Shown here: positions 5,465-45,377 of the stretch, piece after piece
How positions within the stretch are numbered: position 1 is the first letter of the stretch
Layout: the number at the start of each line of letters is the position of its first letter
Assembly (NCBI GenBank): GCA_965371715.1
Contig: CBDUZN010000002.1
Span: forward strand, 1-45,377
DNA from: an uncultured bacterium
GTDB lineage: Bacteria; Hydrothermota; 32-111
DNA length: 45,377 nt
Direction of reading: 5' to 3'
Position numbers and translations under genes: made by a program
The notes under the pieces: generated by a model
Seen by the model: the letters and a program-made list of their open reading frames with translations, nothing else
The model's database searches: none
Told to the model about the DNA's origin: nothing

Positions 5465-5503
5465 TTAATAAATAGTCAAAATAAATTTAAAAGGAGGATG
5501 GCT

Positions 5504-22260: not shown

Positions 22261-22881
22261 TCAATGATCCCTTATAATATCTTTTACTTTCATTAATCGA
22301 GTAAGATTGGAGCGTTCCATTTCAGCAAGTTTCATAACTATAAATTTAATAGTTTCTTCCAAATTAGGAATGAGCTTGTATTCCAATGCATTCACTCTTC
22401 TTCTTGTTTTATCAATTTCATCAGCTAACAATTGAACTGTTTTTTCTTTTTCTGCTAATATTAATAATGACTCAAAAAATTTATCAAATTTCATTAATGC
22501 AACATCCATTTCGCCTGAAGTATTTAAATATCCATAACAAATAATACTACCCTCTACTTCTCTCTTGAAAATTGGAACCTTTACTGACATTAGGTTTTTT
22601 TCTTCCACACTAACAGATACCTTTTTTTGTGGCAAAGAAAGTGCTTCATCCATTTCAAGAGGTTCCATTTCCGCTTTTGCCAAAGTGAATCCTCTTAGTA
22701 TTGATTGGAATTCTGATTCAATGGAAATACGCAAATCCTTCACTTCATTTATAAGCAGCATCATTTGTCTCATTAATTCATCTTGTTTGTCCCTTAATAG
22801 CTTATGTCCGCGTTTTGCTATTTTGATACGCTTCTTTAAACGAAGTAATTCCATTCTTGTTGCATTAACATTGAGTATCAT
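22261..22881 (-). CDS. atpD: V-type ATPase subunit D
   Basis: N-terminus NATRMELLRLKKRIKIAKRGHKLLRDKQDEL and a coiled-coil central stalk. Last gene of the ntp-like operon. Confidence 0.9.
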   Translation of the reverse strand: MILNVNATRMELLRLKKRIKIAKRGHKLLRDKQDELMRQMMLLINEVKDLRISIESEFQSILRGFTLAKAEMEPLEMDEALSLPQKKVSVSVEEKNLMSVKVPIFKREVEGSIICYGYLNTSGEMDVALMKFDKFFESLLILAEKEKTVQLLADEIDKTRRRVNALEYKLIPNLEETIKFIVMKLAEMERSNLTRLMKVKDIIRDH

Positions 22882-24287
22882 TATTTATCCTCTTTTTCAA
22901 CCTTTTCATTTTCTTTAATTTTTTCTAAATATTTATCAAGATACTCATCTCTTATTCTCTTTAATTCCTCTCTTGGAAAAACCGATAGTAATTTCCAGCT
23001 TAAATCAAGCGTCTGCTCAATTGTTCTGTTTTCATATTCTCCCTGAGAAATATATTCCTCTTCAAATGCACTTGCGAATTGCAAATATATCTTATCCATA
23101 TCCGATAATGCCGCTTCACCAAGAATCACTGCTAATTCCTCAACCTCTTTGCCCCTTGCATAAGAAGCATAAAGTTGATTAAATATATCAGCATGATCTT
23201 CTCTTGTTTTTCCCTTTCCAATACCCTTATCTTTTAATCTTGATAATGATGGAAGTACATCTGTTGGAGGCGATATTTTCTTTTTATGAAGGGACCTTGA
23301 AAGAATAATTTGTCCTTCGGTAATATAGCCCGTCAAATCAGGGATAGGATGCGTTTTGTCATCTTCCGGCATTGTAAGGATAGGGATCATTGTTATTGAT
23401 CCACTTTTCCCTTTTATTTTTCCTGCTCTTTCATAAATTGTTGATAAATCAGTATAAAGATATCCGGGATATCCTCTTCTTCCCGGTATCTCTTTTCTTG
23501 CTGCCGAGACCTCTCTTAATGCCTCACAATAATTTGTAATATCTGTTAAAATCACAAGAACATGCATATCTTTTTCAAAAGCAAGATATTCTGCACAGGT
23601 TAAGGCAACCCTTGGTGTAGCAATTCTTTCAATTGCAGGATCATTAGCAAGATTTAAGAATAATACAGCTCTGTTAATTGCTCCTGTTTTCGTAAAATCA
23701 TTTATAAAATATTCTGATTCTTCAAATGTAATGCCCATTGCTCCAAAAACAACAGCAAATGATTCTTCCGATTTCCGTACAACTGCCTGTCTGGCAATCT
23801 GCGCAGCCATTTTATTATGCGGAAGACCTGAGCCGGAAAATATAGGTAGTTTTTGTCCTCTTACAAGCGTATTTAATCCATCAATTGATGAAATTCCTGT
23901 TTGTATAAATTCATCGGGATAATTCCTTGCATAAGGATTTATAGGAGCGCCATTTATATCCTTACTCTTTTCAGCAATGATTCTATCCTTATCGGTTTTG
24001 GGTTTGCCAAGTCCGGTAAAAACCTTTCCAAGTATATCTTTGGATAACTCCAGTTCAATTCCTCGTCCCAGAAATCTCACTTTTGTTTTCTCAACATCAA
24101 TACCTGTTGTTCCCTCAAAAACCTGCACCAATGCCTTATCATTATTAACTTCAAGCACCTTTCCTGTTCTTTTTGTATTATCTGCAAGGCGAATCTCAAC
24201 CAGTTCTTCATACTTTACACCTTCAACACCTTCAACTAACATAAGGGGTCCCGAAATGTTTATAATGCTGTTATATTCTTTAAGCAT
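22881..24287 (-). CDS. atpB: V-type ATPase subunit B
   Basis: Non-catalytic B-subunit blocks seen: [43 protein letters not shown]. Confidence 0.95.
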
Positions 24288-24289
24288 AA

Positions 24290-26059
24290 TTACTCCTGAT
24301 TTGATTCTTGTGTCAATTTTTTGAATTCTTCATCAATATCCTTAATTACATTATCAATAAGTTCAATGTTTTTATTATCAGTATATTTCATTCTTGCTAT
24401 TTTATCTCTCACCTTCATCTTTTCTATATCATCAATTTTTACATTTTTCTGCAAATGTTCCTTTGCAGTAGTAAATAGATAGTCAATAACACACATCATT
24501 TTATACTGCTTTTCAATTGGAGAATATGTGTCAACTTCATGAAATGCATTCTGATGGAGAAAATCCTCTCTATACATTTTTGCAGTTAATAGAATCAATC
24601 TATCTGTTCCTGAAAGAGAGTCCACTCCAACAAGACGAACAATTTCTTCAAGTTCGGATTCTTCTTCTAATATTCTCATTGCCTTTGATTGTAAATCAAA
24701 GAAATCCTCAGCAACCAACTTTTTAACACCTTCTCTTATATTGTCAATATATAATGAATATGAATTCAACCAGGATATTGCAGGGAAATGTCTTCTATAG
24801 GCAAGACTTGCTTCAAGAGACCAAAATACCTTAACAACCCTAAGTGTTGCCTGAACAACCGGATCGGAGAAATCACCGCCCGGAGGAGATACTGCTCCTA
24901 TTACAGATAATGCTCCCTCTTTTTCTTTATCAGAAGAAAGTGTTATCACTCTACCTGCTCTTTCATAAAAAGAAGCTATTCTTGCACCAAGATAGGCAGG
25001 ATAACCCTCTTCTCCCGGCATTTCTTCAAGTCGTCCAGATATTTCTCTCATTGCTTCTGCCCATCTTGATGTACTGTCAGCCATAAGAGCAACCGAATAA
25101 CCCATATCTCTAAAATATTCAGCAATGGTTATACCCGTATAAACAGATGCTTCCCTTGCTGCAACAGGCATATTAGATGTATTTGCAATAAGTACTGTTT
25201 TTTTCATAAGTGGTTCGCCCGACTTTGGGTCAATAAGTTCAGGAAACTCCAATAACACATCTGTCATTTCGTTTCCTCTTTCACCGCAACCAATATAAAC
25301 AACTATTTCTGCATCAGCCCATTTTGCTAATTGATGCTGAATAACTGTTTTTCCTGAACCAAATGGTCCTGGTACACAGGCAGTTCCACCTTTTGCAATT
25401 GGGAAAAACATATCAATTACTCGTTGACCTGTAATTAACGGCATTTCAGGTGGTAATTTTTTTGCATATGGTCTTGGCTTTCTTACAGGCCATTTCTGCA
25501 TCATCTGTATTTTATAGTCCTTCTTTTCTGATTTTACTATTGCAATGGTTTCTTCAATTGTAAATTTACCTTTTTCAATGGATTTGATCTTCCCTGATAT
25601 TCCGGGAGGTATCATTATATAATGCTTAACAAGCTTTGTTTCCTGTACAAAACCTATTGTATCTCCTTCCTGTATATTGTCGCCTTTTTTAACACTTGGA
25701 TTGAAGTTCCATTTCTTTTCCATATTTAATGGAGAAACACTTACACCTCTTGGAATAAAATCGCCAGCCTTTTCATATATCAAATCAAGGGGTCTTTGAA
25801 CTCCATCATAAATGGATTCAATAAGTCCGGGACCCAAGATTACCGAAAGGGGCTCTCCTGATAGATACACAGGTTCTCCCACTCCTATACCGGCTGTTTC
25901 TTCATATACCTGAATATATGCTCTATCTCCATCCAATTCTATTATTTCACCCATTAATTTATGTTTTGAAACATAAACAACATCGTACATTTTAGCGCCG
26001 GTCATATTGTCTGCAATTACGAGTGGTCCTGCAACCTTTGTGATTTTTCCCGTTTTCAT
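24290..26059 (-). CDS. atpA: V-type ATPase catalytic subunit A
   Basis: Walker [30 protein letters not shown] and the non-homologous-region insert typical of A subunits. Confidence 0.97.
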
Positions 26060-26076
26060 CGCTTCTCCTATTTTTT

Positions 26077-26394
26077 TTAAGATATTATATCTGCGCCAAC
26101 AGCTTTAATGATTGCCTGCCTTAATCTATTGATTGCATAATCATTTTTTTCCCCAATACCGGGAATAACCATTATTGACGGTAACATTTTTTCAGAATAT
26201 TCTCTTATTGTTGAATCAATTTTTGATGCAAAATTATCAGTAATAAAAATAATTCCATAATTCTTTTTAGCAATTTTTTTCAATGTATCTCTTGCCTGTT
26301 CTGCATTTATTACAGGGAAAATATCTGCTCCTACTGCCTTAAAGATTAACATTACATCATTTTCGCCAATTGCACCGATTTTTACATTTTTCAT
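26077..26394 (-). CDS. atpF: V-type ATPase subunit F
   Basis: 105 aa with [22 protein letters not shown]...IIFITDNFA. Positioned between C and A. Confidence 0.85.
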
Positions 26395-27407
26395 AAAGCA
26401 AGTATCCTATTTCTTATTCTTTCTTTATCAATTGAATATGTGGCTCCTATTAATGCAATATTAAGGTTTTTCATTTCAATGCGTTTTCTCAAAACAAAAT
26501 AAACCACTTTTTCAAGATTAGCAACAGAGTATTTTACATGTTCAAAGAAATTCAGAACAAACTCGTCCTCATTTCTTTCAAATGCCGAGAATGTATCTTT
26601 CTGCTGGAACAAATGTGTTCCCTGAAAGATCATTTTCGAATACGGTGTTTTTTCAATACTTTGAATAAAATAATCCGTTGATTCCTTTTCATATTTTATT
26701 AATTCCTTTTTTTCAAGGAATCCATTTTCATAAAGAAATACGGTATATGGAATTTTGTCTTTAAGTAATTTCACTCTATATATATTTTTTATATTATACA
26801 TATCTATTGTATGTTTTAAAAGATCAACAAGCATTTCGCTGCCCATTGAAGAAAAATGTTCATAGATTTTATTAAGATAAAATCTTTCAAGTAATAGTTC
26901 CCTTGTTCTCTGATTTTTCTCAATACCTATTGTATATTTTGCATAATTAAGAATTTCTTGTGTCTCCTTATCAATCTTATCATATTTCCCGCTTTCATAT
27001 GCCTCTTTAAGATCCTGATAGGAATATGAAAAAGCATGAAAAATATTTGAAAAATCCTTTTCTGTTATGGATGCCTTCATTATAATTTTAATATTCTGCA
27101 TATCCAGTCTAAGCAAGTAGAATTCGGTAAGCGGTTCATGTTTCTTTTTTAAAAAACTTCTCAGTAGATTCATAATGTTTGAATGCTCTTCTGTCATTGC
27201 ACTTTCTAAATTACCTGTTTTTTCAATTATTGGAATATATTTGGAATAATGTGTTTCCTGTAAAATCTTCAAAAAATCCTTCGCTGAATCTGCATTTATT
27301 AATCGTTCCCATCTCTGCTTATCAATAAATTCTTTTTCCCTTTCTGTTAAAAGGGCACATATATAAAGATAATATGAATCATCATTTATATCATAATCCT
27401 TGAACAA
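26391..27407 (-). CDS. atpC: V-type ATPase subunit C (d)
   Basis: 338-aa all-helical protein in the canonical slot between E and F. Confidence 0.8.
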   Translation of the reverse strand: MFKDYDINDDSYYLYICALLTEREKEFIDKQRWERLINADSAKDFLKILQETHYSKYIPIIEKTGNLESAMTEEHSNIMNLLRSFLKKKHEPLTEFYLLRLDMQNIKIIMKASITEKDFSNIFHAFSYSYQDLKEAYESGKYDKIDKETQEILNYAKYTIGIEKNQRTRELLLERFYLNKIYEHFSSMGSEMLVDLLKHTIDMYNIKNIYRVKLLKDKIPYTVFLYENGFLEKKELIKYEKESTDYFIQSIEKTPYSKMIFQGTHLFQQKDTFSAFERNEDEFVLNFFEHVKYSVANLEKVVYFVLRKRIEMKNLNIALIGATYSIDKERIRNRILAL

Positions 27408-27995
27408 TCATTCCTCCTTCGGGAATAGAATAGATGCCAATTCAATTCTGAATTCATCAACTGATGATGTAAAATAATCATAGGGAGATAAATTATAACT
27501 TGCCTTGCCGGATACTATTTTAACACCAAACTCAAAGTCCGCCTTTTCTTTGCTTTCTTTAATAGCAGTTTTCATTTTTTTTGCTATAGATACAATATTT
27601 TTTGCATTTATATTTTTATCCCTTTTTCCTATTAGTACTTCACCCTTTTTTATTTCACTCTTTTTAAGCATTTTTTCAATAAATGATTTATACTTTTTTG
27701 CTTCCGGCTTAAGAAGTTGCCCTGATGCCTTTTCAATTATTGAATCAATAATATTGATTTTGTATTCAAGGATTTTTTGATTCATTTCTGAATACACTTT
27801 AAGTAGTTCTGTTTCATAAATATCTTTTTTTCTTATAATTGCAATCTTTTTTGTATCTTTTATGCTGTCATCTTTTTCTTTTTTTGCCTCATTTATTAAT
27901 ATATCTGCCTTTTCTTTTGCTGCATTAATGATGTTTTCTTTTTCAATGTCAGCATCATTTAATATCTTATTAGCTACATTGCTGATATGGGACAT
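27408..27995 (-). CDS. atpE: V-type ATPase subunit E
   Basis: 195 aa with a long charged N-terminal helix and a globular C-terminus, in the canonical position. Confidence 0.8.
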   Translation of the reverse strand: MSHISNVANKILNDADIEKENIINAAKEKADILINEAKKEKDDSIKDTKKIAIIRKKDIYETELLKVYSEMNQKILEYKINIIDSIIEKASGQLLKPEAKKYKSFIEKMLKKSEIKKGEVLIGKRDKNINAKNIVSIAKKMKTAIKESKEKADFEFGVKIVSGKASYNLSPYDYFTSSVDEFRIELASILFPKEE

Positions 27996-28005
27996 ACTGC
28001 TTTCC

Positions 28006-30532
<2,527 letters not shown>

Positions 30533-30533
<1 letters not shown>

Positions 30534-30859
30534 TATTCATAAACCTTTTTTATAATATAATTCAATGCTTCCTTTTCTTTTTTAGCAGAAAATTCTTTTA
30601 CTTTCTTTATTTTACTATCATATTCTTTCTCTATTTTCCCTCTTTTCTTTTCTGCATCTGCTATTGCACTATTTTCTGCTTTGCTTAAAATTACCTTTGT
30701 TTCATTCTCTATTGATTTTCTAATCTCTTTTGCCTTCACATTGGCATTATCAATTATTTTATCAGAGTCCTTCCTGGCTGATGCTATTATTCCTTTTGCT
30801 TTTTCTTCTGCTTCCTTTATCTCATTAATAATATTTTTTACCACAGCCATCTCCTTCAT
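30533..30859 (-). CDS. V-type ATPase small peripheral-stalk subunit (G/H-like, NtpF-like position)
   Basis: 108-aa single charged helix (A/E/K-rich). First gene of the operon, overlapping atpI by 1 nt. Confidence 0.7.
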
Positions 30860-30915: not shown

Positions 30916-31255
30916 GTGTCCTTGCGAATCCGTCTTTCGCGGATGCGGAAATCTCCTTATTGACCCCCATTTCTTTTCGTAGGGGCAGACCTGTGTGTCT
31001 GCCCATATTATACCGTAGGGTTTATTCCGTGTAATCTGAGGAATAAATTACGCATTGGTAGGGGCAATGCCCCCGTGCTTGCCCATCTTTATTATTCTGA
31101 ATAATTCAAAGAATCTATTAATCTTTGGAATCCAGTATTTTTCTTCTTTTCCGGGTCATCCCGTACTTGATACGGGATCCAGTATTCTCGTTCTTTCTTT
31201 TCTTTGCTAGCGTACCAGCAACAAGCGTACTAGACACTTCTTCTTGTACCCCCCC
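30916..31255. repeat. mosaic GC-rich intergenic repeat block (several hairpin modules)
   Basis: Hairpins at 30983..31004 (GGGCAGAC/GTCTGCCC), 31021..31047 (TTTATTCC/GGAATAAA), 31058..31086 (GTAGGGGC..GCCCAT) and 31158..31178 (ATCCCGTA-cttga-TACGGGAT). A polypyrimidine tract and AGCGTAC heptamers follow at 31190..31250. Confidence 0.8.
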
Positions 31256-32029
31256 CTATCCAATTGTTCTTACAAAATCAGGAAACATTTCAATCATTTT
31301 TGAATCTTTTGGTTTTATAAGAAATATTTCTATTTCTTTTTGAAGTTTCTTTAAATCAATGCTTTTACATTTTTCTAATAATATTGATTTCAAGGCATTA
31401 TTATTTTCAATTCCATTTGTAAGTTTAAGATATCCATATTCAGGTTGTGTAAATGAAAACATATAAATAATATCATAAATATCTCTTGCTTTTGTGCGTT
31501 TTCTATTTAGAAAAGCAGAAATCTTTTGTGAAAGCAGTATATTTTGAGGAACTACATATATTCTTGTTAAAATGGAAAATCTATTTAAAAGATAATCAGT
31601 GGCAATATATGTATATGGCTGCCGTTCAGCATCAAGCTGTATCAATATTTTTTCCTTATCATAGCCAGACAAATTGTAATCAAACAAGAGTTTCGGGAAT
31701 CTTATATAACATCTAAAAGCATTTTTTGATACAACTTTTATTTCAATAACAAATCCTTCCAATTCAAGTTCATCTCGAATTATTTCTGTTAATTGTTCAA
31801 ATTCATTAAAGGAAATATCTCTACTATCAAAATCAATATCTTCGGAAAATCTTTGAGAATTATGAATTACTCGGATTGCTGTTCCACCCATAAAAACAAT
31901 CCTGTTTGAAAATTTACTATTAAATATTATATCAAGAATCTTGTATTGAAGATATTCTCTGAGAAGTTGCTTTTTATAAACATGCATATTTTCCGGATAA
32001 AACTTTTCTATTTCCTTAATACTAAGCAT
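31256..32029 (-). CDS. abiEii: AbiEii/AbiGii-family nucleotidyltransferase toxin (type IV TA)
   Basis: MGGTAIRVIHNSQRFSEDIDFD nucleotidyltransferase motif. Overlaps the upstream antitoxin gene by 8 nt. Confidence 0.85.
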   Translation of the reverse strand: MLSIKEIEKFYPENMHVYKKQLLREYLQYKILDIIFNSKFSNRIVFMGGTAIRVIHNSQRFSEDIDFDSRDISFNEFEQLTEIIRDELELEGFVIEIKVVSKNAFRCYIRFPKLLFDYNLSGYDKEKILIQLDAERQPYTYIATDYLLNRFSILTRIYVVPQNILLSQKISAFLNRKRTKARDIYDIIYMFSFTQPEYGYLKLTNGIENNNALKSILLEKCKSIDLKKLQKEIEIFLIKPKDSKMIEMFPDFVRTIG

Positions 32030-32698: not shown

Positions 32699-32787
32699 CC
32701 CCACCCTGAGCATAGCCGAAGGGTCAGCGTACCAATTGCCAGTTACTTCTCCAAATTTTTCTACTTTTTCAAGCACCGTCCCCTGAA
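32699..32787. repeat. mosaic GC-rich repeat (CCCTGAGC..GCCGAAGGGT + AGCGTACC..CCAGTTACTTCT + TTCTCCAAATTTTTCTACTTTTTCAAGCACCGTCCC)
   Basis: The last module is near-identical to 42551..42586 and supplies the final codons and stop of the 32769 gene. Confidence 0.8.
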
Positions 32788-34250
32788 ATTTTATTAGTTT
32801 TTATTATATTTTTCATTTTCTCTGTTAGGTAATAACCACCTACTTGTGCCGCTTCATTACTGAAGTATATTAATTTTACTTCTTTTAATTGCTTTATATA
32901 TCTCTCTACGCTGCTAATAGGTGTTTTAGTTATTGCAACATAATCAGGAACTCTTTTACCTTCATTATTAGCAATAGCATTTAAAAGAGCAGTCAGTTTT
33001 TCTTTTCTTTCCTTAGTCGCTCCCTCAATTGCTCCCTCAATTGCTCCCTCAATTGCTCCCTCAATTGAAATACCATGTTTTCCTATAATAGTTATTTTGG
33101 GGAAACTTAGTATAATAGTACCAAAAGTACCATTCCATTTTGGTTCAGGATACCCTTTATCTATGCAATCATCAATCATCTTAATTGTACCACGACCAAT
33201 CTTTTCAATCCATGCTCTGAGAAAACAAATATGAGCAATATCTGGGTTTCTTGGAAAAGAAAGATGATTTCTCTTTAAATCAAAGAATTTTATTTCAGAT
33301 GGTAATTTTCCATAATTTACAATTTCCAAATAGTCAGGATGAAAAGAAAGAACAATACTCCCAGAAGCATTGGAGTAGTCGCTATGTATCAGTGCGTTTA
33401 AAAGACCTTCACGCAAGGCAATTCTGGGAAATCCTTTATCAATTCTTTTCCAGCTGGAATCTTTGAACTGACTGCTTACACCAATATTTACATCAAAAAA
33501 CTGCGTGATATTATCAATGTTTTTAAATATATTATCATCAAATATTTTATCATAAACATATTCATCTCCACCTTTACTGTCTTTAAAAACAATCAATCTA
33601 ACTCGTGCTTGAGGTAAAAATCTAGTGGGTTCTTTTGCAAAAAGAATAACTGCAGCATTTGTAAAATTTCCATTTTGATAAAGACCATAATGGGTTAGAA
33701 ATTCACTAATCTCATTTTTTGAGAAAATTTTTCCTCTACCCGCTTTTTCAATATCTTTCAATGTATCTAATATAACCGATTCGTCTAAATCTTTAAGTTC
33801 TACACCTATTGCATCTTGCCGTTCCCAAAGGGTTTCAGTTTTTTGTCGTTTTTCAATGAGTTCTGATATTTGATTAGGAGTTGCTTTGGTTGTATTGGTA
33901 ATATTTCGATAGTAAATACTACTATTAAATGTATAAGGGAACCTTGATCCTCTCCATACTTTTATGAGAAAAACCTTCATCTCTTTATAGGTTTCTATTG
34001 AAATTGATATCGGTGCATTAGGAGAAATTAGTTTAACAAGGAAGTCCTCTAATTCTGATTTATGCTTTTCAGTATTTGAAATCCCAACTATTTTATTTTT
34101 CTTTACTCCAATTAAAATTTGACCACCATTGGTGTTCAAAAAGCCGCAAATGGTTTTTCCAATATCTTCTTTACTAACGATTCCCTTAAATTCAAGTTGT
34201 TCACTCTCACCCTTTTTTAAAATGTTTTCTATGAGTTGTTTATTTTTCAT
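32769..34250 (-). CDS. AlbA_2 (Schlafen-like) + HATPase_c_4 (RecG-C-like) + C-terminal wHTH protein, paralogue 1
   Basis: N-terminus ESEQLEFKG...ICGFLNTNGGQILIGV (AlbA_2), ALREGLLNALIHSDYS (HATPase_c_4-like), a (GAIE)4 linker and a C-terminal wHTH-like tail. Overlaps the upstream DUF4062 gene by 11 nt. Confidence 0.8.
   Translation of the reverse strand: MKNKQLIENILKKGESEQLEFKGIVSKEDIGKTICGFLNTNGGQILIGVKKNKIVGISNTEKHKSELEDFLVKLISPNAPISISIETYKEMKVFLIKVWRGSRFPYTFNSSIYYRNITNTTKATPNQISELIEKRQKTETLWERQDAIGVELKDLDESVILDTLKDIEKAGRGKIFSKNEISEFLTHYGLYQNGNFTNAAVILFAKEPTRFLPQARVRLIVFKDSKGGDEYVYDKIFDDNIFKNIDNITQFFDVNIGVSSQFKDSSWKRIDKGFPRIALREGLLNALIHSDYSNASGSIVLSFHPDYLEIVNYGKLPSEIKFFDLKRNHLSFPRNPDIAHICFLRAWIEKIGRGTIKMIDDCIDKGYPEPKWNGTFGTIILSFPKITIIGKHGISIEGAIEGAIEGAIEGATKERKEKLTALLNAIANNEGKRVPDYVAITKTPISSVERYIKQLKEVKLIYFSNEAAQVGGYYLTEKMKNIIKTNKISGDGA
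33019..33066. repeat. perfect 12-bp x4 tandem repeat (GCTCCCTCAATT) inside a CDS
   Basis: Encodes (GAIE)4 in the linker between the HATPase_c_4-like region and the wHTH of paralogue 1. Confidence 0.95.
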
Positions 34251-34857: not shown

Positions 34858-34910
34858 TAAATACATTGGTACCCGCAATTAAATCATCCCATTATAATTT
34901 GCATATTTGC

Positions 34911-35040
34911 ATCCTCCGTCCCCTCCAGATTTCCCAATATTTTCCCATTCTCCTGAGGCAGATTTTTCCACTTTTCCAACCAGCGTACCAGATACCAGTT
35001 ACTTCTGCAAAGCCGAAGGGTCATCCACGCATTTCCAAAT
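34911..35040. repeat. mosaic GC-rich repeat
   Basis: CATTCTCCTGAGGCAGATTTTTCCACTTTTCCAACCA (34946-) is near-identical to 38591-. It is followed by CAGCGTACCAGATACCAGTTACTTCT (compare 36164-) and GCCGAAGGGT. Confidence 0.8.
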
Positions 35041-35042
35041 TC

Positions 35043-35201
35043 CTATAAATTTAAAATATCTACTGATAATCGTGGTAAATTCCTAACAAAAAAATTGATT
35101 GCTGTTCCACCTTTTATTGCCCAATCATCTATTTCTTCAATATATGGCAACAATTTTAGAAGTAATCTCACTTGATTAGAATATTTATCATTATATATCA
35201 T
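35043..35201 (-). pseudogene. truncated AbiEii-type nucleotidyltransferase toxin (52-codon N-terminal stub)
   Basis: ATG at 35201 overlaps the antitoxin stop (ATGA). It encodes MIYNDKYSNQVRLLLKLLPYIEEIDDWAIKGGTAINFFVRNLPRLSVDILNL*. The frame stops inside the catalytic S-V-D-I-D motif and repeat DNA follows. Confidence 0.7.
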
Positions 35202-36013: not shown

Positions 36014-36197
36014 TGTCTTTGCGAGCGAAGCTATAGGGTTGAAAATTCGCCCCACCTAGGCGGGTCTAAGGACGTGGCGAACAATCTCCTTATCGGCTAT
36101 TCATTCTTTTCTTCCCCGCCCTGAGCAAGCATTGCGAGCCGAAGGGTCTCCACTATCGTACTCAGCATACCAGATACCAGTTACCTCTTCGGATTCC
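36014..36197. repeat. mosaic GC-rich repeat
   Basis: GTCTTTGCGAGCGAAG...GCGAACAATCTCC (compare 21601), CCGCCCTGAGCAAGCATTGCGAGCCGAAGGGT (compare 42424) and CAGCATACCAGATACCAGTTACCTCTTCGG (compare 34981). Confidence 0.8.
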
Positions 36198-36819: not shown

Positions 36820-36850
36820 AAAACCCCCATGTTCTTACTTACATTAAAGA

Positions 36851-36899
36851 CACTTCTCCAACTTTTTCTATCCTCCTTAGGCGGATTGAGAACTTTTTC
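36851..36899. repeat. mosaic repeat module (variant of TTCTCCAA.TTTTTCTA..CCTNAGGCGGATT)
   Basis: CACTTCTCCAACTTTTTCTATCCTCCTTAGGCGGATTGAGAACTTTTTC combines motifs seen at 32748, 38591 and 42549. Confidence 0.6.
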
Positions 36900-36941: not shown

Positions 36942-38300
36942 CTATTGACCATCAACTATTGACTTCTTCTTGCCCCGTCCCCTTATGTACCAAACATTAT
37001 TCCCTCCACCCATTTTGATAATTTTATCTTGCCTAATTAATTTATTTAAATCATCAATTGCGGTATCTCTATGAACAGAAAATTGTTTCTCTATATCTTT
37101 TGATTTAATTCTACCATTTTCCTTAAGTTTACTTATTATCCACTTTATTCTTTTCTCCACAGATTTATTTCGGATTTGTTTCGGATTTGTTTCGGATTTG
37201 TTTCGGATTTGTCTATAAAAAATTACATTAAAAAAGGATTCAACTTCAAATTCAATTTTCAAATTATTATCTTTCATTAATTTTTTTATTCTTTTTATGC
37301 CAGATCCTGCTTTTTCAACTAATCCAAGTCTATGAACAAGATCTACAAGTATTGGATTCCTTTGTACACTTCTTTTGCCTAATTCATTTTTAGGAAATAA
37401 TAATTTCCCGGGGTTTATAATTTCTACTCTTTTGGGATCTATATTTATTTGAATGTTTGCAGGGGAAAAATAATCTCTATGTATCATCGCATTTATTATT
37501 GCTTCTCTTAATGCACTCTTTGGCAATTCTAATTTAGTTTTATGTTTTAATTCATCTTTTATTATTATTGCAGTGTTCAATTTTGAAATAAGATATTTAT
37601 AAACATTGTTTAAATTTGATATGAAATCTTCTTCAAATTCCTTTGAATCAATTATTTCCGTCTGTTCTTTATCACTATATAGAAAACATGAGATTATTGC
37701 ATTAGGCAAATAATGTTTTATATTTCTTGTAAAAAACAAGATACCCGAATTGTTTAATTTATTGTTTGTTAGTAAGTTTAGATTATTTAAGATATGCTTC
37801 TTTGATAGATTCTTATCCAACCCTGTTTCTTTTTTAAAATTCTCAAATACATCTATTGAAAAATCCATTTCTTTAAAAACTTTTGTTTGTTTTTCAAAGG
37901 ATATTAAATTTTCTCTTTGAAATAAATTCCTTATTTCATCTCTGTTTAATTGTTGAGAATTTGCTCCATATCTTAAATAAAAATGCCCGTTTATCATATA
38001 AGGTTTACTTTTACCTTCTGGAACATATATAATTACTAAATTATTTATTTGCTCTATTTGAATATTAAAAGAAGGATTCATATTTCTCGCAATATCCTGG
38101 ATTTTTGATCGCACAGAATTTGTTAATTTAAATCCTTTTACTCTATTTGTTTTATCATTTACGCCAATAACTATTTTCCCACCAGAAGAGTTTGCAAAAG
38201 CACAAATTCCTTTACCAATAGAACTATTGATAGACTCTTTTAATTCAATAGTATAACCTTCACCTGTTTTTATTATATCCAATAACTCATTATATTTCAT
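36942..38300 (-). CDS. AlbA_2 (Schlafen-like) + HATPase_c_4 + wHTH protein, paralogue 2
   Basis: TIELKES...ICAFANSSGGKIVIGV, ALREAIINAMIHRDYF and a C-terminal wHTH. Start set at ATG 38300 (MKYNELL, aligning with paralogue 1), which forms an ATGA overlap with the upstream 87-aa ORF. Confidence 0.8.
   Translation of the reverse strand: MKYNELLDIIKTGEGYTIELKESINSSIGKGICAFANSSGGKIVIGVNDKTNRVKGFKLTNSVRSKIQDIARNMNPSFNIQIEQINNLVIIYVPEGKSKPYMINGHFYLRYGANSQQLNRDEIRNLFQRENLISFEKQTKVFKEMDFSIDVFENFKKETGLDKNLSKKHILNNLNLLTNNKLNNSGILFFTRNIKHYLPNAIISCFLYSDKEQTEIIDSKEFEEDFISNLNNVYKYLISKLNTAIIIKDELKHKTKLELPKSALREAIINAMIHRDYFSPANIQINIDPKRVEIINPGKLLFPKNELGKRSVQRNPILVDLVHRLGLVEKAGSGIKRIKKLMKDNNLKIEFEVESFFNVIFYRQIRNKSETNPKQIRNKSVEKRIKWIISKLKENGRIKSKDIEKQFSVHRDTAIDDLNKLIRQDKIIKMGGGNNVWYIRGRGKKKSIVDGQ
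37163..37214. repeat. 11-bp x about 4.7 tandem repeat (ATTTGTTTCGG) inside a CDS
   Basis: One imperfect unit, three perfect units and one partial unit. It encodes IRNKSETNPKQIRNKS, with the protein period equal to 3 DNA units. Confidence 0.95.
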
Positions 38301-38536: not shown

Positions 38537-38589
38537 ATAATATATTTTATATGAATTCAATAAATAATCAATATAAAAGATTAATTATT

Positions 38590-38636
38590 CCATTCTCCTG
38601 AGGCGGATTTTTCCACTTTTTCAACCATCGTCCCCG
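38590..38636. repeat. mosaic repeat module
   Basis: CCATTCTCCTGAGGCGGATTTTTCCACTTTTTCAACCATCGTCCCCG is near-identical to 34945-34990. It supplies the last codons and stop of the 38621 gene. Confidence 0.8.
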
Positions 38637-40039
38637 ATTCTTTCTCTTTTTATTTGTTTTCCTTTTTCAGTAATAATGTATTTTTGCTTACTGCTTCGTG
38701 GTTTTTCAGGAATAGTCATTTTTAAAATTCCATTTTCAATAAGTGGATAAATTTTTCTCTTATAATTTAAGTAAACATCTGATAAATTTAAATGTTTTAA
38801 TATTTCACTTTTGGAACGAGGAATATAACAAAATTTTAAAATAGAAATAACTTGCTCACTAACTTGCTCACTAACTTGCTCACTAACTTGCTCACTAACT
38901 CCGACTTTTTTTCTTTTGAAAATTACAACAAAATTGCCTGCTATTTCTTTATATGTTGGAATAGGAAGTTTGAATGTTTGCATTAATTGATTCATCTTTT
39001 CTATTCCACTCCCCCATCTTTCAATATATCCGCTTAAAAATAGAATCTCAGCAATAGTAGGATTTCTTAGTACTGAAATATGTTTTTTTAAAAGATCACT
39101 GATTTTAATATTTAACGGTAATCCTCCTGGAGACCATATTTCTACTCTATCATCAAATATCATTATATCAATATGACTTGGGGTTCTATAATCCCTATGA
39201 GCTACTGCATTTGCCACTGCTTCTCTAATAGCAAGAATAGGTAATTCATATTGTTCTTCTCTTCTACCAGTTTGAGAATTAATCTGGGCAAATTTACGAA
39301 TATTTCTTACTATAAATTTTAGAGATAAGTCAATCTGATTAAAAACATTATCCTTGATTTCAATATGATCAATTATTTTACCTGTTTTATCTACACCCTC
39401 AAAAAAAGCACATTTAATAATAGTATCTGTAAAGTATTTTTGAATTTCTTTACCAAAAGTCATTACCCCAGCAAAATTTAATTTACTTTGTGATAGCAAT
39501 CCAAGTTTACTTAAAATTACTCTATTATTTTCTTTGGTATCAATAGGTAAATTCCTTTCTTCCTTTGCTTTTTCAAGAAACCATTTCACTGTTTTTGCAT
39601 CTATTGCATTATTGTATTCATTATTTATTGTTTTATCAAATCTATATGCAGGATTTTCTCTCTCATAAAGGTATTTTTCTATCTCATATCGGGAAAGATA
39701 TGCATTACTGGTACCTAATCGTTTATATGCTTTTCCTTTATAAAAATATGGCTTTTCAGGACTGTTTTTTATTTCTACAATTAATATATCTTTGTTCTTG
39801 ATTGAATCTATATAAACATTTGGATAAATTCTGGGTTCAATTAAAGATAATATAGTTGTTGAAACTCTTTTAATTGTATTATCACTAAATTTTTGACCAA
39901 GAATATCCCCATTATCGGATATTCCAAAATAGATGGTTCCTATACCACAATTTGCAAATGCACAAAGATCTATTAATGCTTGTTTTAATTCTGCTGTTGA
40001 TCTTTTAAATTCTACTTTTTCCGATTCCTTGAATTTCAT
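38621..40039 (-). CDS. AlbA_2 (Schlafen-like) + HATPase_c_4 + wHTH protein, paralogue 3
   Basis: ESEKVEFKRS...LCAFANCGIGTIYFGI, AIREAVANAVAHRDYR, a (SEQV)4 linker and a C-terminal wHTH-like tail. Confidence 0.8.
   Translation of the reverse strand: MKFKESEKVEFKRSTAELKQALIDLCAFANCGIGTIYFGISDNGDILGQKFSDNTIKRVSTTILSLIEPRIYPNVYIDSIKNKDILIVEIKNSPEKPYFYKGKAYKRLGTSNAYLSRYEIEKYLYERENPAYRFDKTINNEYNNAIDAKTVKWFLEKAKEERNLPIDTKENNRVILSKLGLLSQSKLNFAGVMTFGKEIQKYFTDTIIKCAFFEGVDKTGKIIDHIEIKDNVFNQIDLSLKFIVRNIRKFAQINSQTGRREEQYELPILAIREAVANAVAHRDYRTPSHIDIMIFDDRVEIWSPGGLPLNIKISDLLKKHISVLRNPTIAEILFLSGYIERWGSGIEKMNQLMQTFKLPIPTYKEIAGNFVVIFKRKKVGVSEQVSEQVSEQVSEQVISILKFCYIPRSKSEILKHLNLSDVYLNYKRKIYPLIENGILKMTIPEKPRSSKQKYIITEKGKQIKRERIGDDG
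38851..38898. repeat. perfect 12-bp x4 tandem repeat (CTTGCTCACTAA) inside a CDS
   Basis: Encodes (SEQV)4 at the same linker position as the repeats in paralogues 1 and 2. Confidence 0.95.
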
Positions 40040-41601: not shown

Positions 41602-42039
41602 TTAAACTCTTTTAGATATCTTTTTATTTAGTTTTTTATTCCTATTCTTTACCATTCTCAATTTGCTCATTATGCTATTAACTGCATAAGCATCATCAGT
41701 TGCTTTCAATATATAACTATATAAACCAGGCATTACTCCTGATTCCATAAGCTCCATCTCCAAAATATGCATTATAATGATTCCAAATATCTTTTTATAT
41801 TCTTTGGAATATTCAAATACACAATTCCCTTTATCATCATTAATTAACAATTTGTGTTCATACACTTTCACAATATAATCACATTCCGCAAATGCTTTTA
41901 ATGCTTTTTGCTTATCATTTTTCAAATAAACATCTCTTCTTGGTATATCAAGATTAGGCATATCAATTGCATAGGTGTTTCCCATTACAGGTCCATGGAC
42001 AAAGATTTTCAAATCTTTTTTCCTGAGAATTTCACTCAT
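41602..42039 (-). CDS. hypothetical protein (145 aa)
   Basis: AGGAG RBS 5 nt upstream of the ATG. Basic C-terminal tail. No recognised domain. Confidence 0.6.
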   Translation of the reverse strand: MSEILRKKDLKIFVHGPVMGNTYAIDMPNLDIPRRDVYLKNDKQKALKAFAECDYIVKVYEHKLLINDDKGNCVFEYSKEYKKIFGIIIMHILEMELMESGVMPGLYSYILKATDDAYAVNSIMSKLRMVKNRNKKLNKKISKRV

Positions 42040-42098: not shown

Positions 42099-42257
42099 TT
42101 ATTGTGTTTTATTTATCAAAACAATCACTATAATAATAAGAATTACCATACCAACCCATCCGCCTGATGCAAGAAATCCAATACAGCGGAAAAATAATCC
42201 CAAAACAATGATAAATAGTATTATCCCCCCAATTATCTTAAAAAAATTCTTTATCAA
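42099..42257 (-). CDS. possible small membrane protein (52 aa, two hydrophobic segments)
   Basis: Too short for the track. TTG start 9 nt after AGGAG. Encodes LIKNFFKIIGGIILFIIVLGLFFRCIGFLASGGWVGMVILIIIVIVLINKTQ*. The 122-aa plus-strand ORF 41908..42276 is its antisense shadow. Confidence 0.35.
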   Translation of the reverse strand: MIKNFFKIIGGIILFIIVLGLFFRCIGFLASGGWVGMVILIIIVIVLINKTQ

Positions 42258-42311: not shown

Positions 42312-42610
42312 GAAAATCCGAAGGTCATTCTGAATACTCTCCCCGCTCCACACATGACGAATCTCATATTTCTTACTGATCCTCATCTCTTTTCTGTCAT
42401 TCCCAACTTGATTGGGAATCCAGTCCGCCCTGAGCGAGCATAGTGAGCCGAAGGGTATTTTCTTTCTTTCCTTTCTTTTCTCCACTAGCGTACTAGAAAC
42501 AAGCACACTAGATACCTCTTCGGTAACAAGCGTACCTGAAACCTGACACTTCTCCAAATTTTTCTACTTTTTCAACCACCGTCCCTTGAATTTTTACCTT
42601 GAATTTTTAT
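42312..42610. repeat. most complete copy of the mosaic GC-rich repeat (all modules in series)
   Basis: In order: hairpin ATTCCCAA-cttga-TTGGGAAT (42399..42419), CCGCCCTGAGCGAGCATAGTGAGCCGAAGGGT, a polypyrimidine tract, the AGCGTAC array, TTCTCCAAATTTTTCTACTTTTTCAACCACCGTCCC, and a 13-bp tandem duplication. Confidence 0.85.
42584..42609. repeat. perfect 13-bp x2 tandem duplication (CCTTGAATTTTTA)
   Basis: Lies between the stop of the 222-aa gene (42617) and the conserved ..CACCGTCCC module. Confidence 0.9.
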
Positions 42611-42616
42611 ATTATC

Positions 42617-43285
42617 CTATGTTTCATTTGTTAAATCAATCCCTGATTTGTAGTTTCTTATAATAGTTTTTTCATAATTATTACTTTGCACAAATTCTGA
42701 AACGATTCTCTTCAACTTTGTTTTATTTGCTTCCATTTCCATATTCAAAATATCACTAGTAGTCATCTTTTCAATCATTTCCAATGGTATATCCCTAAAT
42801 CTATCTTTGTTTTTCATTATAGTATTTATAACATGCTTTCTGTATTGCTTATTTGTGATTTTATCATTTTTATTGTTTTGTATAAAATCAAAAATTCTAT
42901 CTCTATCTTTATTGTAATAATTAATAATCTCCGTTAATTGTTCTACATATAAATCATTATAATTCCCATACAATAATTTATCAATTTTTTTGAATAATAC
43001 TTTTTTTCTATATTCAAAATCTATAAATATGTTAAATTCTTTTACTAATTCTTTATCTTCTATAATCTCATCAATTCTCATGATGTGTTTTGATATCATT
43101 CTCAGTAAAGTAGTTATTTCTTCCTTTATTTCTATACTGTCTTCGTCTTCAACTGGATAGTTTATTATATTAAGCATATTAATTAAACCAGTTTTTTTTA
43201 ACTTTTTTTGTTTTTCAATATTGTTGTTTTTTGTATTTCTACTCTTCCTTTGAATGAATTGTAATATTCTTGTTATAATATTCAA
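42617..43285 (-). CDS. hypothetical protein (222 aa), third gene of the MotAB-like module
   Basis: Starts 2 nt after the stop of the MotB-like gene. Basic N-terminus (RKSRNTKNNNIEKQKKLKK), predicted helical and K/E/N/I-rich. No TM segment and no nuclease, helicase or other motif recognised. Confidence 0.65.
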   Translation of the reverse strand: MNIITRILQFIQRKSRNTKNNNIEKQKKLKKTGLINMLNIINYPVEDEDSIEIKEEITTLLRMISKHIMRIDEIIEDKELVKEFNIFIDFEYRKKVLFKKIDKLLYGNYNDLYVEQLTEIINYYNKDRDRIFDFIQNNKNDKITNKQYRKHVINTIMKNKDRFRDIPLEMIEKMTTSDILNMEMEANKTKLKRIVSEFVQSNNYEKTIIRNYKSGIDLTNET

Positions 43286-43287
43286 AT

Positions 43288-43977
43288 TTACAGATCCAAT
43301 CTTATTTCGATTCTTCTATTCTTCATTTTGTATTCCTCATTACTATTGCAGTAACTAATTAATTTCATGATTTTCTCAATAGAATAATTATCATACACAT
43401 AATTTAATAATTCTATAGCATTTTCCTCAACTTTTTGGTTAGTTCTGTTTTTCTCATATTCTAAATAATATTTTTTAACCAATTCATAATTAGGCTGATA
43501 ATATGCTTTACCACAGGGAAGAAGTTGCACTTCACTGAATTCTTCAAATTCGTCAAGGATTCCTTTTCTCTTTATAAATTGTACTATTGTATTAGCTCTA
43601 TCCAAAGATAGATTCCAATTTGAGTAATTTATGTCATTGTATTTTATTTTAAGGTCGGATGATATTGAATCAGTATCTGTGTGACCTATTATTAAAATAT
43701 TTTTGATTTTGCTTGCTACACCTTTTTCTCTGTATTTATTAACAATCTCGTGTATTTTGTTAAATGCTTCATGAAATTCCTTCTCTGCCTGAATAGTATC
43801 TACAATGGAATATTTTCCTGATTCAAAAAGTAATTTCTCATTAATATGTTGCGAGGGTACATTTTTGAATTCATTCTCCAAATTCTTTTTCATAAAATAT
43901 GCACTTATCAATATAAATACCAGCAACAATGCAAAAGCTAAATCCAAAATACTTTTTATTGGTTCAGACTTTTTCAA
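43288..43977 (-). CDS. MotB/ZorB-like protein: N-terminal TM with conserved Asp + OmpA-like peptidoglycan-binding domain
   Basis: ILDLAFALLLVFILISAYF is a single TM with Asp at its cytoplasmic end, as in MotB/ExbD/ZorB. OmpA-like motifs IIGHTDTD, NLSLDRANTIV and NRRIEIRL are present. 4-nt overlap with the upstream gene. Confidence 0.8.
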   Translation of the reverse strand: MKKSEPIKSILDLAFALLLVFILISAYFMKKNLENEFKNVPSQHINEKLLFESGKYSIVDTIQAEKEFHEAFNKIHEIVNKYREKGVASKIKNILIIGHTDTDSISSDLKIKYNDINYSNWNLSLDRANTIVQFIKRKGILDEFEEFSEVQLLPCGKAYYQPNYELVKKYYLEYEKNRTNQKVEENAIELLNYVYDNYSIEKIMKLISYCNSNEEYKMKNRRIEIRLDL

Positions 43978-45377
43978 TTTTTCTCCTGCTTTTTGAAAAT
44001 ATTCAATTTATTCCATACACTATGTTTTTTATTTTCATCCATCACAATTTCCCTTATTGAATCCTCATCAATTTTTATTCCATCAAGCAATTTGGTTGTT
44101 TTACCAATATTTTGAATTAGCTGTTCTATCATTTTTTCAATTGAAAGAAATATTGCACCAATATTTCTTTCTTGTGATTGCTGTATCCATTCTCTTTGTA
44201 TTTGATTTACATGATCTATAATTTTTTTCATTACTTCCTGGTTTTCCGTCTTCTCGCTTACAATAACACCATCAAATTTTATTTTCATGTTTTTAGCTGA
44301 GTTGTCAAATGATTTAGTTATATGATTTGTAATGTCTTCCATATTTTGATTTGTGTTTTTTGTAAATTTTGATACTTGGTTTTCTTGTTCTTCTATTTGC
44401 TTCAATATTGCATTTCTCGTTTTTTGATTGTCTTCTAAATTATTTTTTATATTCTCTATAATCTCACCATTTTTTCTATTAGAAATACTTATCGTTTCAT
44501 CCATTTTTATTGATATTGTCTCTAATTTATTCACAATTTTCTTATCATTCAATGCAATAGCAGAAAAACTCTCTGACATCTTTTTGGATGATGAAATTAA
44601 ATTGTAAATATTTTCCTTTTCAATAAGATACTTGTTAAGAAATTCACTCATTAGTTGATTAAAATGGCTGATTGATTTTTTCAATTCATTTGTTGATTCA
44701 ATATTTGCTGATTTTATCTCATCAAATTTTATTACTGAAGTATTGAAACTTTCAGAAGCATCCTTCATATTTTCAATAAGTGGATGGATTGTGTTGGTCA
44801 TATTATGAAGATCTTTTGTTATTTTATTGATACTAAACTGAGTTTCTTTAATTATCATTTCTACATCTTTCGCATTGTTCATTAAATATTCTATTGTTCT
44901 ATTCTGTGCTATATCAAATTCTTTTTCATTGTTTACATTCAATTTGTTTGACCATGCATTAAAGATAAGCCCGAAAATGCTTGTAAAGAGAGCAATCGCT
45001 GCAGCAGAAACAATTCTTGACACTATTTGTGCATCATCCAATCCACCCTTTCCTATCCACCAAACGTAACAAAAACTTATAATTAATCCAAGAAATGTTC
45101 CACCAATACCAGACAAAATGAATCTCCCAGGATCATTATTATATGAAAATTCCGGTTTTATCATATTTAAAATTCTATCAAAATCAGTCATATTTCTAAC
45201 CCACCCCGATTGTGAATATTGTTTTATTCTCATTGCAAGAGTTTCTGGAGTATCTTTATCAAATTCATTCTCATTTCCGTCAAGCATTTCTAATTCTATT
45301 TTAAATATCCTTATTTTATCATTTGATTTTTTAATGTTTTTTTTATAATTGTTAAAAAAATAAGCCATAGAAATAAT
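43974..45377 (-). CDS. MotA/ExbB/ZorA-like proton-channel protein with a long C-terminal helical tail (probably 5'-truncated by the window edge)
   Basis: TM pair with MotA_ExbB signatures (FILSGIGGTFLGLIISF and IVSAAAIALFTSIFGLIFNAWSN), followed by about 310 aa of K/E/N/I-rich helical sequence. First ATG is at 45368, but the frame is still open to 45377 (..IIS-MAYFF then NNYKKNIKK) and the expected N-terminal TM1 is missing. Confidence 0.75.
   Translation of the reverse strand: MISMAYFFNNYKKNIKKSNDKIRIFKIELEMLDGNENEFDKDTPETLAMRIKQYSQSGWVRNMTDFDRILNMIKPEFSYNNDPGRFILSGIGGTFLGLIISFCYVWWIGKGGLDDAQIVSRIVSAAAIALFTSIFGLIFNAWSNKLNVNNEKEFDIAQNRTIEYLMNNAKDVEMIIKETQFSINKITKDLHNMTNTIHPLIENMKDASESFNTSVIKFDEIKSANIESTNELKKSISHFNQLMSEFLNKYLIEKENIYNLISSSKKMSESFSAIALNDKKIVNKLETISIKMDETISISNRKNGEIIENIKNNLEDNQKTRNAILKQIEEQENQVSKFTKNTNQNMEDITNHITKSFDNSAKNMKIKFDGVIVSEKTENQEVMKKIIDHVNQIQREWIQQSQERNIGAIFLSIEKMIEQLIQNIGKTTKLLDGIKIDEDSIREIVMDENKKHSVWNKLNIFKKQEKN

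Follow-up and report, generated by a model that had tools for sequence, protein, structure and literature searches.

Three adjacent minus-strand genes at the end of a bacterial contig probably specify a Zorya-type motor of the inner membrane (genes 1 and 2) followed by an adaptor (gene 3), with the effectors encoded upstream of gene 1, off the contig. The DNA is contig CBDUZN010000002.1 of assembly GCA_965371715.1, from an uncultured bacterium of the Hydrothermota. The window analyzed is this entire contig of 45,377 nucleotides (nt), and the three-gene cassette sits at its very end, at 42617-45377. To our knowledge, Zorya is the sole known immune system built on a rotary motor resembling the flagellar stator, and we know of only three partner sets described for its ZorA-ZorB (ZorAB) motor, i.e., ZorCD, ZorE, and ZorFG. 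Below, the ZorA-like gene is also called A, the ZorB-like gene B, and the small gene that follows them X. The features of the cassette are listed in Table 1.

The list of open reading frames (ORFs) and the sequence itself agree that the three genes are tightly packed, as had been noted in an earlier reading of the letters alone (the sequence-only reading). The tetranucleotide TTGA at 43974-43977 was found by sequence inspection to combine the stop codon of gene 1 with the start codon of gene 2, and AGGAG is placed 8 nt upstream of this TTG start. Two nucleotides (43286-43287) separate the TAA of gene 2 from the TTG start of gene 3. Both TTG starts are consistent with the N-termini of homologues. 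Together, the TTGA overlap and the 2-nt gap suggest that translation may be coupled across the three genes.

Gene 1 is truncated at its 5' end by the end of the contig. Its listed ORF covers 43974-45368, the frame stays open to 45377, and 467 codons are present. We judge its full length to be 481 amino acids (aa) from protein P0001, which comes from another sample, is 99% identical to gene 1, starts 14 codons further upstream, and supplies the first transmembrane (TM) helix. The second sample has the same genes, with about 99% protein identity and full-length products. The sole near-identical source found was an 8.2-kb Logan contig; when looked up by exact sequence, neither genes 2 and 3 nor P0001 and P0003 had a record, and a scan of a genome collection with P0001 returned nothing.

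Table 1. Coordinates of the three genes, their principal features, and the adjoining repeat
Feature	Position	Strand	Evidence or remark
Gene 1, ZorA-like motor subunit	43974..45377	minus	ORF list, family profile against PDB ZorA, PADLOC, fold search
Gene 1, TM1 remnant (P0001 residues 15-24)	45348..45377	minus	rest of helix and start codon beyond contig end
Gene 1, TM2 with GxxGTFxGL motif	45051..45125	minus	Thr108 codon 45096-45098 aligns with EcZorA Thr147
Gene 1, TM3 with A-x3-SI-x-G motif	44949..45032	minus	Ser147 codon 44979-44981 aligns with EcZorA Ser184
Gene 1, cytoplasmic helical tail, 316 aa	43977..44924	minus	invariant Pro213 and Phe225 near base
Gene 2, ZorB/MotB-like subunit, 229 aa	43288..43977	minus	PADLOC ZorB1, Pfam OmpA, PDB profile, alignments
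Gene 2, single TM helix	43879-43968	minus	
Gene 2, Asp12 codon, invariant membrane Asp	43942..43944	minus	equivalent to ZorB Asp26, MotB Asp32
Gene 2, OmpA-type peptidoglycan-binding domain	43291-43845	minus	
Gene 2, peptidoglycan-binding motif N120-W-N-L123-S-L-D-R127	43597..43620	minus	invariant NWNLSLDRA
Gene 3 (X), soluble orphan, 222 aa	42617..43285	minus	ORF list, homology searches, composition
Mosaic intergenic repeat directly 3' of gene 3	42366..42596		related copies after other island cassettes

All motifs quoted in the sequence-only reading were located, i.e., GIGGTFLGL (45084-45110) and AIALFTSIFGL (44967-44999) in gene 1 and ILDLAFALLL, GHTD, NWNLSLDRA, and NRRIEI in gene 2. The two motif-bearing channel helices that it ascribed to gene 1 are present, but the gene is incomplete, and the full-length protein has three predicted TM helices rather than two (residues 1-24, 99-123, and 130-157 by hydropathy of P0001). 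It had also described a long charged helical tail after the channel helices, and here we found agreement: the tail is predicted to be helical (in a low-confidence structural model), contains 1 Pro and 5 Gly in its 316 aa, and has a hydrophobic periodicity of 3.55 residues (z=10 versus shuffles), which is the same in all nine family members. This part of gene 1 matches the tail region of PADLOC ZorA models.

By itself, gene 1 had no MotA_ExbB match in Pfam and found nothing among PDB sequences, and a word-indexed search of 5.8 billion proteins returned only its near-identical twin. An exhaustive HMMER search over 1.84 billion representatives detected just five relatives: P0011 (E=2.9e-20), P0012 (E=3.7e-15), P0013 (E=5.5e-9), P0014 (E=2.9e-7), and P0015 (E=5.5e-5). 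Three further relatives were obtained from the neighbors of gene 2 homologues. Gene 1 matched a 538-aa protein of locus L008 at 4e-13 and a 527-aa protein of TA06 bacteria at 1e-8. One architecture is common to all nine family members, and 14 residues are invariant (D79, G104, G107, T108, F109, G111, L112, F116, A143, S147, I148, G150, P213, and F225). With five relatives among 1.84 billion representatives, the subfamily is patchy and very rare.

The ZorA assignment of gene 1 was made with a profile of these nine sequences, run against all PDB sequences, because the window sequence alone reaches only E=0.016. The profile matched E. coli ZorA (8qyd_A) at E=2.2e-10, and the TM1-TM3 stretch of this match (profile positions 7-154 on ZorA 27-197) was significant alone (independent E-value, 1.9e-4). 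It also matched Shewanella ZorA (8vvn_C) over TM2-TM3 at 5.5e-10 and Sulfuricurvum ZorA (8vvi_F) at 3.5e-8. The remaining strong matches were coiled coils and chemoreceptor signaling domains. Among the best 60 matches there was no ExbB, TolQ, MotA, or PomA, and ZorA chains were the only subunits of 5:2 motors. Counted along the profile alignment, the invariant Thr108 and Ser147 correspond to Thr147 and Ser184 of E. coli ZorA (EcZorA), located in TM2 and TM3, respectively, which contact ZorB Asp26 in the cryo-EM structure (PMC11946911).

Individual family members gave similar results. The L008 protein matched PADLOC ZorA models at 1.9e-14 (ZorA2) and 4.3e-14, and the latter match runs from TM2 into the tail (residues 79-349 on profile positions 32-265). 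P0012 matched a ZorA model at 1.7e-7 over TM2-TM3, and P0013 at 2.8e-6. On TM2-TM3, the L008 protein narrowly missed the cutoff of Pfam MotA_ExbB (21.9 versus 22.9 bits), and P0011 was likewise sub-threshold. Taken at the level of the family, these alignments support gene 1 as a predicted, very divergent ZorA-family motor subunit, in agreement with its initial description as a ZorA-type protein.

Gene 2 was recognized more directly. PADLOC identified it with the ZorB1 model at 4.4e-11 and with other ZorB models too, and a Pfam OmpA match (1.2e-5) fell just below threshold. Its homologues are 33-41% identical across eight loci, in all of which Asp12 (also in alignment A5), GHTD, NWNLSLDRA, and NRRI are invariant; the description of gene 2 as a MotB/ZorB-like protein with a TM Asp and an OmpA-type domain thus stands. 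The pattern used to mark the peptidoglycan-binding motif draws in part on what is generally known of the OmpA family. It also draws on the peptidoglycan-binding residues of ZorB (PMC11946911), and the role of the membrane Asp is taken from ZorB Asp26 in the same study. Only about 12 residues separate the TM helix of gene 2 from the first strand of its domain, too few to accommodate a plug and linker of the MotB kind; a B subunit free of both is a ZorB-like trait (PMC11946911). An insertion of ~60 aa precedes the last strand. Because gene 2 alone cannot separate ZorB from MotB, its ZorB label depends on its gene 1 partner. A search for gene 2 in plasmids gave no match, and neither did a search for its family on viral contigs, which we counted as neutral for the defense reading.

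The product of gene 3 has no TM helix by hydropathy, no Cys, and a basic amphipathic N-terminus. It had no match in Pfam, PDB sequences, 5.8 billion proteins, plasmids, or phages (including tblastn against plasmids and phages), and none at E<=1 in PADLOC, including the ZorC-G models. The earlier view of a soluble, unassignable protein with a basic N-terminus, distinct from the Zorya components already described, was therefore upheld. No recognizable catalytic motif or conserved His was found in the protein. Its AlphaFold2 (AF2) model, built from the single sequence, had a predicted local distance difference test (pLDDT) score of 41 and is unusable beyond the statement that the protein is helical.

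A gene of 222-258 aa is located directly after B in eight lineages (the window, three TA06-type loci, L046, L042/L050, L043, and L044), and the recurrence of the A-B-X order, counted in eight further lineages, indicates that the trio is not a chance arrangement. The X proteins resemble one another in where they are encoded, in length, and in being helical; they all lack conserved Cys or His, and their N-termini are basic and amphipathic (first 30 residues, net charge of +2 to +9). By sequence they form separate groups: L042 with L043 (1e-12), L043 with L044 (4e-3), and TA06 with L007 (1e-22), with L046 marginal only (about 0.01). Gene 3 of the window belongs to none of them (not significant by BLASTP and hhalign against each group), and against a profile of the seven other X proteins it scored no better than 37 of 300 shuffles. 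Co-occurrence of X with the A-B pair, which the sequence-only reading had proposed to check, is seen by position in eight lineages; locus L008 lacks X, and gene 3 has no sequence link to its counterparts.

The relatives provided information on what may lie upstream of gene 1. Upstream DNA is available for six relatives, and in every one of them a gene on the same strand precedes the A-B pair at a distance of 0-14 nt. The lineages closest to gene 1 are those that have an 839-aa protein and coiled-coil proteins in this position. In L049/L042/L050, the order is 839-aa protein, 447-aa coiled-coil protein, A, B, X, and in L043 (GCA_039804185.1) it is 839-aa protein, two paralogous coiled-coil proteins, A, B, X; the unit of 839-aa protein, coiled coil, A, B, and X is thus kept between two genomes. 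The two 839-aa proteins (L049, 3422-5941; L043, 4327-6846) match each other over their full length at 1e-75 and have a P-loop (Pfam AAA_19, 3.7e-6; weak ResIII and PIF1 matches). The profile of this family found nothing among solved structures. The P-loop of the 839-aa protein reads GxPGTGKS, the protein also has a KGLEFD motif like those of UvrD-type helicases, and its N-terminal ~90 residues (FRxRxGDxRIxF) resemble, by eye and without a tool match, the RelE/ParE toxin fold.

In TA06 and the P0015 lineage, the A-B pair closes an 11-gene operon. The operon was seen in L002/L009 (candidate division TA06 bacterium 32_111; L009, 1087 to about 11430) and also in L001 and L003-L006. The operon encodes, in order, a 357-aa coiled coil, a 422-aa metallo-beta-lactamase fold, a 157-aa protein, a 259-aa coiled coil, 48-aa and 258-aa proteins, a 540-aa Hsp70-like ATPase (match at 1e-25), a 404-aa protein, ZorA-like and ZorB-like proteins, and a 234-aa protein. 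The Hsp70-like protein also weakly matches the PADLOC candidate PDC-M61B (1e-4). L008 (194-2506) has the reversed order, ZorB-like (227 aa) then ZorA-like (538 aa), with no third gene; its ZorA-like protein is the family member best recognized by current ZorA models (1.9e-14). In L007, the A gene is apparently interrupted. In L044, a 299-aa ORF (3789-4688) lies 190 nt downstream of X; its D...ELD...FEAKTG segment resembles a PD-(D/E)xK nuclease motif by eye, and the ORF had no match in Pfam.

Several loci are associated with CRISPR components. In L004, the type III CRISPR-Cas genes cas6 and cas10 are located just downstream. L049 contains, at 86-1913, a CRISPR array with 24 copies of the 36-nt repeat GTAGCAAACTAACTCCCGTAACATCGGGTTTGCAAC, ~200 nt from the operon that holds the closest gene 1 relative. 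The X and upstream proteins of the relatives had no Zor match in PADLOC and no DUF3348, DUF2894, or HNH match in Pfam.

ZorAB structures are available for E. coli (EcZorAB, 8qyd), Shewanella (8vvn), and Sulfuricurvum (8vvi) (PMC11946911, PMC11890865), and the closest resemblance is to Zorya types I and II. Common traits include an A subunit with three TM helices, ExbB-like topology, and a long C-terminal helical tail; the Thr of the GTF motif and the TM3 Ser at positions touching the B-subunit Asp; a B subunit with a single TM helix, an invariant Asp, and an OmpA-type peptidoglycan domain joined almost directly; A-then-B order with overlap; location in a defense island; and strongest PADLOC matches of the family to the ZorA1/ZorA2 and ZorB1/ZorB2 models. 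The differences are an extreme divergence, such that gene 1 of the window is unrecognized alone, a tail of 316 aa here versus about 507 aa in EcZorA, a B subunit with a shorter TM-to-domain segment and the ~60-aa insertion before the last strand, and the partners: no ZorC/ZorD or ZorE was found, the presumed partners are upstream, and an unrelated small protein follows B.

Type III Zorya has the order zorG-zorA-zorB-zorF (PMC8565338; order from the methods of PMC11946911) and is similar in that its AB pair is flanked on both sides by partners of unknown biochemistry, not followed by a helicase or nuclease. However, gene 3 and the flanking proteins of the relatives have no match to the ZorF (DUF3348) or ZorG (DUF2894) models, and the ZorA3/ZorB3 models match less well than those of types I and II. 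PADLOC's own rules would call no Zorya system at the trio. We found no description of a further Zorya type or of a ZorAB-Hsp70 association in the literature searched. We therefore file the trio as a putative Zorya-like variant outside types I-III that is incomplete in the window.

Other stator-type pairs were also compared. ExbB-ExbD and TolQ-TolR provide the best fold matches, over the first ~215 residues of gene 1, and have the same three-TM topology, but ExbB and TolQ have no 300-aa tail, and no TonB, TolA, or Pal gene was found here. An OmpA-type domain is missing from ExbD and TolR, and the MotA of flagella, which has four TM helices, is without a long tail. With MotAB/PomAB, the cassette has in common a peptidoglycan domain and a membrane Asp in gene 2 that resemble those of MotB, and both are presumed 5:2 rotary motors; the differences are the four TM helices and large cytoplasmic loop of MotA and the plug and long linker of MotB. 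Flagellar genes were not found in the window. SiiA-SiiB of the Salmonella SPI4 type 1 secretion system (T1SS) (bioRxiv 10.1101/641415) is likewise a pair of peptidoglycan-binding MotB-like and ExbB/MotA-like proteins that serves another machine outside flagella, but none of the loci has T1SS genes or a giant adhesin, and SiiA is absent from the PDB matches of the gene 2 profile at E<=0.01. GldLM was rejected as a candidate: GldL, with two TM helices, pairs with a protein that lacks an OmpA-type domain, and GldLM is absent from the fold matches.

Several observations weigh against a Zorya-type motor. When used alone, gene 1 of the window matches PADLOC ZorA models at E=0.016-0.05 (best, ZorA2 at 0.016) in the tail only, where composition can mislead, and its missing MotA_ExbB match in Pfam counts in the same direction. 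Its AF2 model, built with six family sequences, is all-helical by DSSP but of low confidence (pLDDT 52, and below 50 over most of the tail). Foldseek with this model counts in favor of the motor family, as ranks 1-44 were exclusively ExbB, TolQ, ZorA, PomA, and MotA chains, all of them A subunits of 5:2 motors. Against ZorA in particular, ExbB had the better fold score; ExbB 5sv0 was at the top, matching the first ~215 residues of gene 1 (E=2.8e-3; TM-score on the target, 0.50). Asked whether gene 1 groups with ordinary ExbB/TolQ, as the sequence-only reading had proposed to check, the sequence profile favors ZorA and the fold search does not. The gene 2 profile (seven members) found MotB (B. 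subtilis 6ysl, 1e-3), not ZorB, among solved structures. Finally, ZorC, D, E, F, and G were not found in the window or in the flanks of the relatives, where PADLOC and Pfam gave no matches, and the gene order is unlike that of types I and II. The sequence-only reading had likewise seen no such gene near the trio.

Some of these points lend weight to a non-immune envelope motor, i.e., an ExbB/TolQ- or SiiAB-like stator that drives secretion, surface-protein handling, or envelope maintenance in FCB-group bacteria, with the upstream coiled-coil, Hsp70-like, or helicase-like proteins as its cargo or cytoskeletal partners. ExbB and TolQ are the top fold matches, gene 2 is equally close to MotB and ZorB, and the Hsp70/actin-fold ATPase and coiled coils of TA06 could be cytoskeletal. 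We nevertheless consider this unlikely, including the part assigned to the upstream proteins. Searches of the window and all related loci for TonB, TolA, Pal, flagellar, T1SS, or gliding genes found none; the sequence-only reading had named flagellar, Tol-Pal, and TonB genes as upstream neighbors that would count against it. The domain and TM composition of ExbD/TolR and MotA described above does not fit the pair, and the profile sequence matches are to ZorA, not to ExbB, TolQ, or MotA. In addition, a patchy and very rare distribution, interchangeable upstream modules, and CRISPR, cas, and Abi neighbors are typical of defense systems.

The sequence-only reading had left it undecided whether the trio is a compact system or the 3' end of a larger one. 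A complete, self-contained three-gene system with gene 3 as the sole cytosolic partner or effector would agree with the tight coupling of the genes, with the presence of X after B in eight lineages, and with type II Zorya, which likewise has three genes (zorABE). It appears improbable: the start of gene 1 is missing, X sequences are not conserved and L008 has none, gene 3 lacks Cys, a conserved His, and a recognizable catalytic motif, and the unit that begins with the 839-aa protein is kept in two genomes. The larger system is favored because gene 1 runs off the contig and a same-strand gene lies 0-14 nt upstream in six of six relatives. The least probable alternative, to which we give hardly any credence, is a decaying or inactive remnant retained in a cassette array by linkage alone. 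The position at a contig end beside repeat elements, the orphan status of gene 3, and the apparently interrupted A gene of L007 are compatible with it, but the three frames are intact, their functional residues are conserved, and the genes recur in the second sample, where their proteins are full-length and about 99% identical.

If the cassette is part of a Zorya-type system, its action may be outlined as follows. By homology, five ZorA-like subunits would surround two ZorB-like subunits, and the OmpA-type domain of the latter would grip peptidoglycan. Asp12 of gene 2, placed opposite Thr108 and Ser147 of the A subunit, would carry protons. The 316-aa tail of A would form a coiled-coil bundle extending roughly 45 nm into the cytoplasm, a length scaled from the 70-nm tail of EcZorA, which has roughly 507 residues (PMC11946911). 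By analogy with E. coli Zorya, an envelope disturbance caused by a phage would anchor and start the motor, and the rotating tail would hand the signal to cytosolic partners. Gene 3 is small, helical, and non-enzymatic-looking, and its product would most likely be an adaptor or specificity subunit at the motor or tail, while the effectors would most likely come from genes that precede gene 1 and lie past the end of the contig. We infer the stoichiometry, the proton drive, the trigger, the role of gene 3, the nature of this organism's upstream genes, and protection against phages, and for the defense function of the trio this inference is drawn from genomic context only.

This context is a minus-strand island that begins at about 31 kb and contains, by Pfam, AbiEii, AbiEi, three AlbA_2/Schlafen-like proteins, DUF4062, NlpC/P60, and a PcfJ-like protein. 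Pfam therefore agrees with the defense-type island (AbiE, Schlafen-like, and DUF4062) that had been described around the trio. A conjugation role, hinted at by the PcfJ-like and NlpC/P60 neighbors, was rejected, as the window contains no type IV secretion system genes. The three AlbA_2/Schlafen-like genes contain perfect 12-nt tandem repeats of about 4 copies and one 11-nt tandem repeat (33019-33067, 38848-38900, and 37162-37212). One of these encodes SEQVSEQVSEQV, and they may serve as linkers of variable length or as sites of slippage.

Directly 3' of gene 3, the sequence-only reading had placed a repeat block. The repeat is present, but it is one copy of a mosaic intergenic repeat that occurs just 3' of almost all genes or cassettes in this minus-strand island (42366-42596, 38578-38651, 36849-36870, 36083-36188, 34910-35044, 32710-32793, and 31193-31257). 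Its minus-strand core is GGGGACGGTGGTTGAAAAAGTAGAAAAATTTGGAGAAGT, with the submotif GACCCTTCGGCT..CTCAGGGCGG, and 42529-42596 is 84% identical to 32726-32793. The region after gene 3 had no Rfam match and no tRNA or tmRNA, and its folding z-score was modest only. The related copies after other cassettes suggest a cassette boundary at 42366-42596; the repeat looks like a cassette-boundary or recombination element. An integrase was not found in the window. Just past the repeat, a very hydrophobic 52-aa ORF (42099-42257) has two predicted membrane helices and a good AGGAG site, and an orphan ORF of 145 aa is located at 41602-42039. Together, these two ORFs may make up a small cassette of their own before the PcfJ-like gene.

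The window, which has low GC content, also encodes LptD, a penicillin-binding protein transpeptidase, a protein sorted by the type IX secretion system (T9SS), and a V-type ATPase, and is predicted to come from a diderm, peptidoglycan-containing bacterium. The T9SS-sorted protein, V/A-type ATPase, LptD, and TA06 relatives together point to an FCB-group diderm as the probable host. The V/A-type ATPase operon is complete and lies at 22261-30859; the T9SS-sorted protein (5498-9391) is 1297 aa long and has lamin-tail domains in addition to its C-terminal T9SS sorting signal.

The system is incomplete in the window and could not be cloned from this contig alone. Judged from the relatives in other uncultivated bacteria, the trio would be the tail end of larger, undescribed operons, and the partner sets of these relatives would be new for a ZorAB motor. 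The subfamily bears on the question of how tail rotation becomes effector activation. If active, it would broaden the outputs of the ZorAB motor, with channel residues and tail retained alongside different partners, and would offer a shorter-tailed minimal motor for mechanistic work. More tentatively, A-B-X could be a portable envelope-sensing rotary module with interchangeable sets of cytosolic effectors, either the coiled coil and 839-aa helicase-like protein or the Hsp70-like ATPase, metallo-beta-lactamase fold, and coiled coils, although we regard this as somewhat less than an even prospect. If it is true, at least two undescribed Zorya types would exist in uncultivated FCB-group bacteria, and the fast-diverging X would set either the interlocutor of the motor or the phage cue that it answers.

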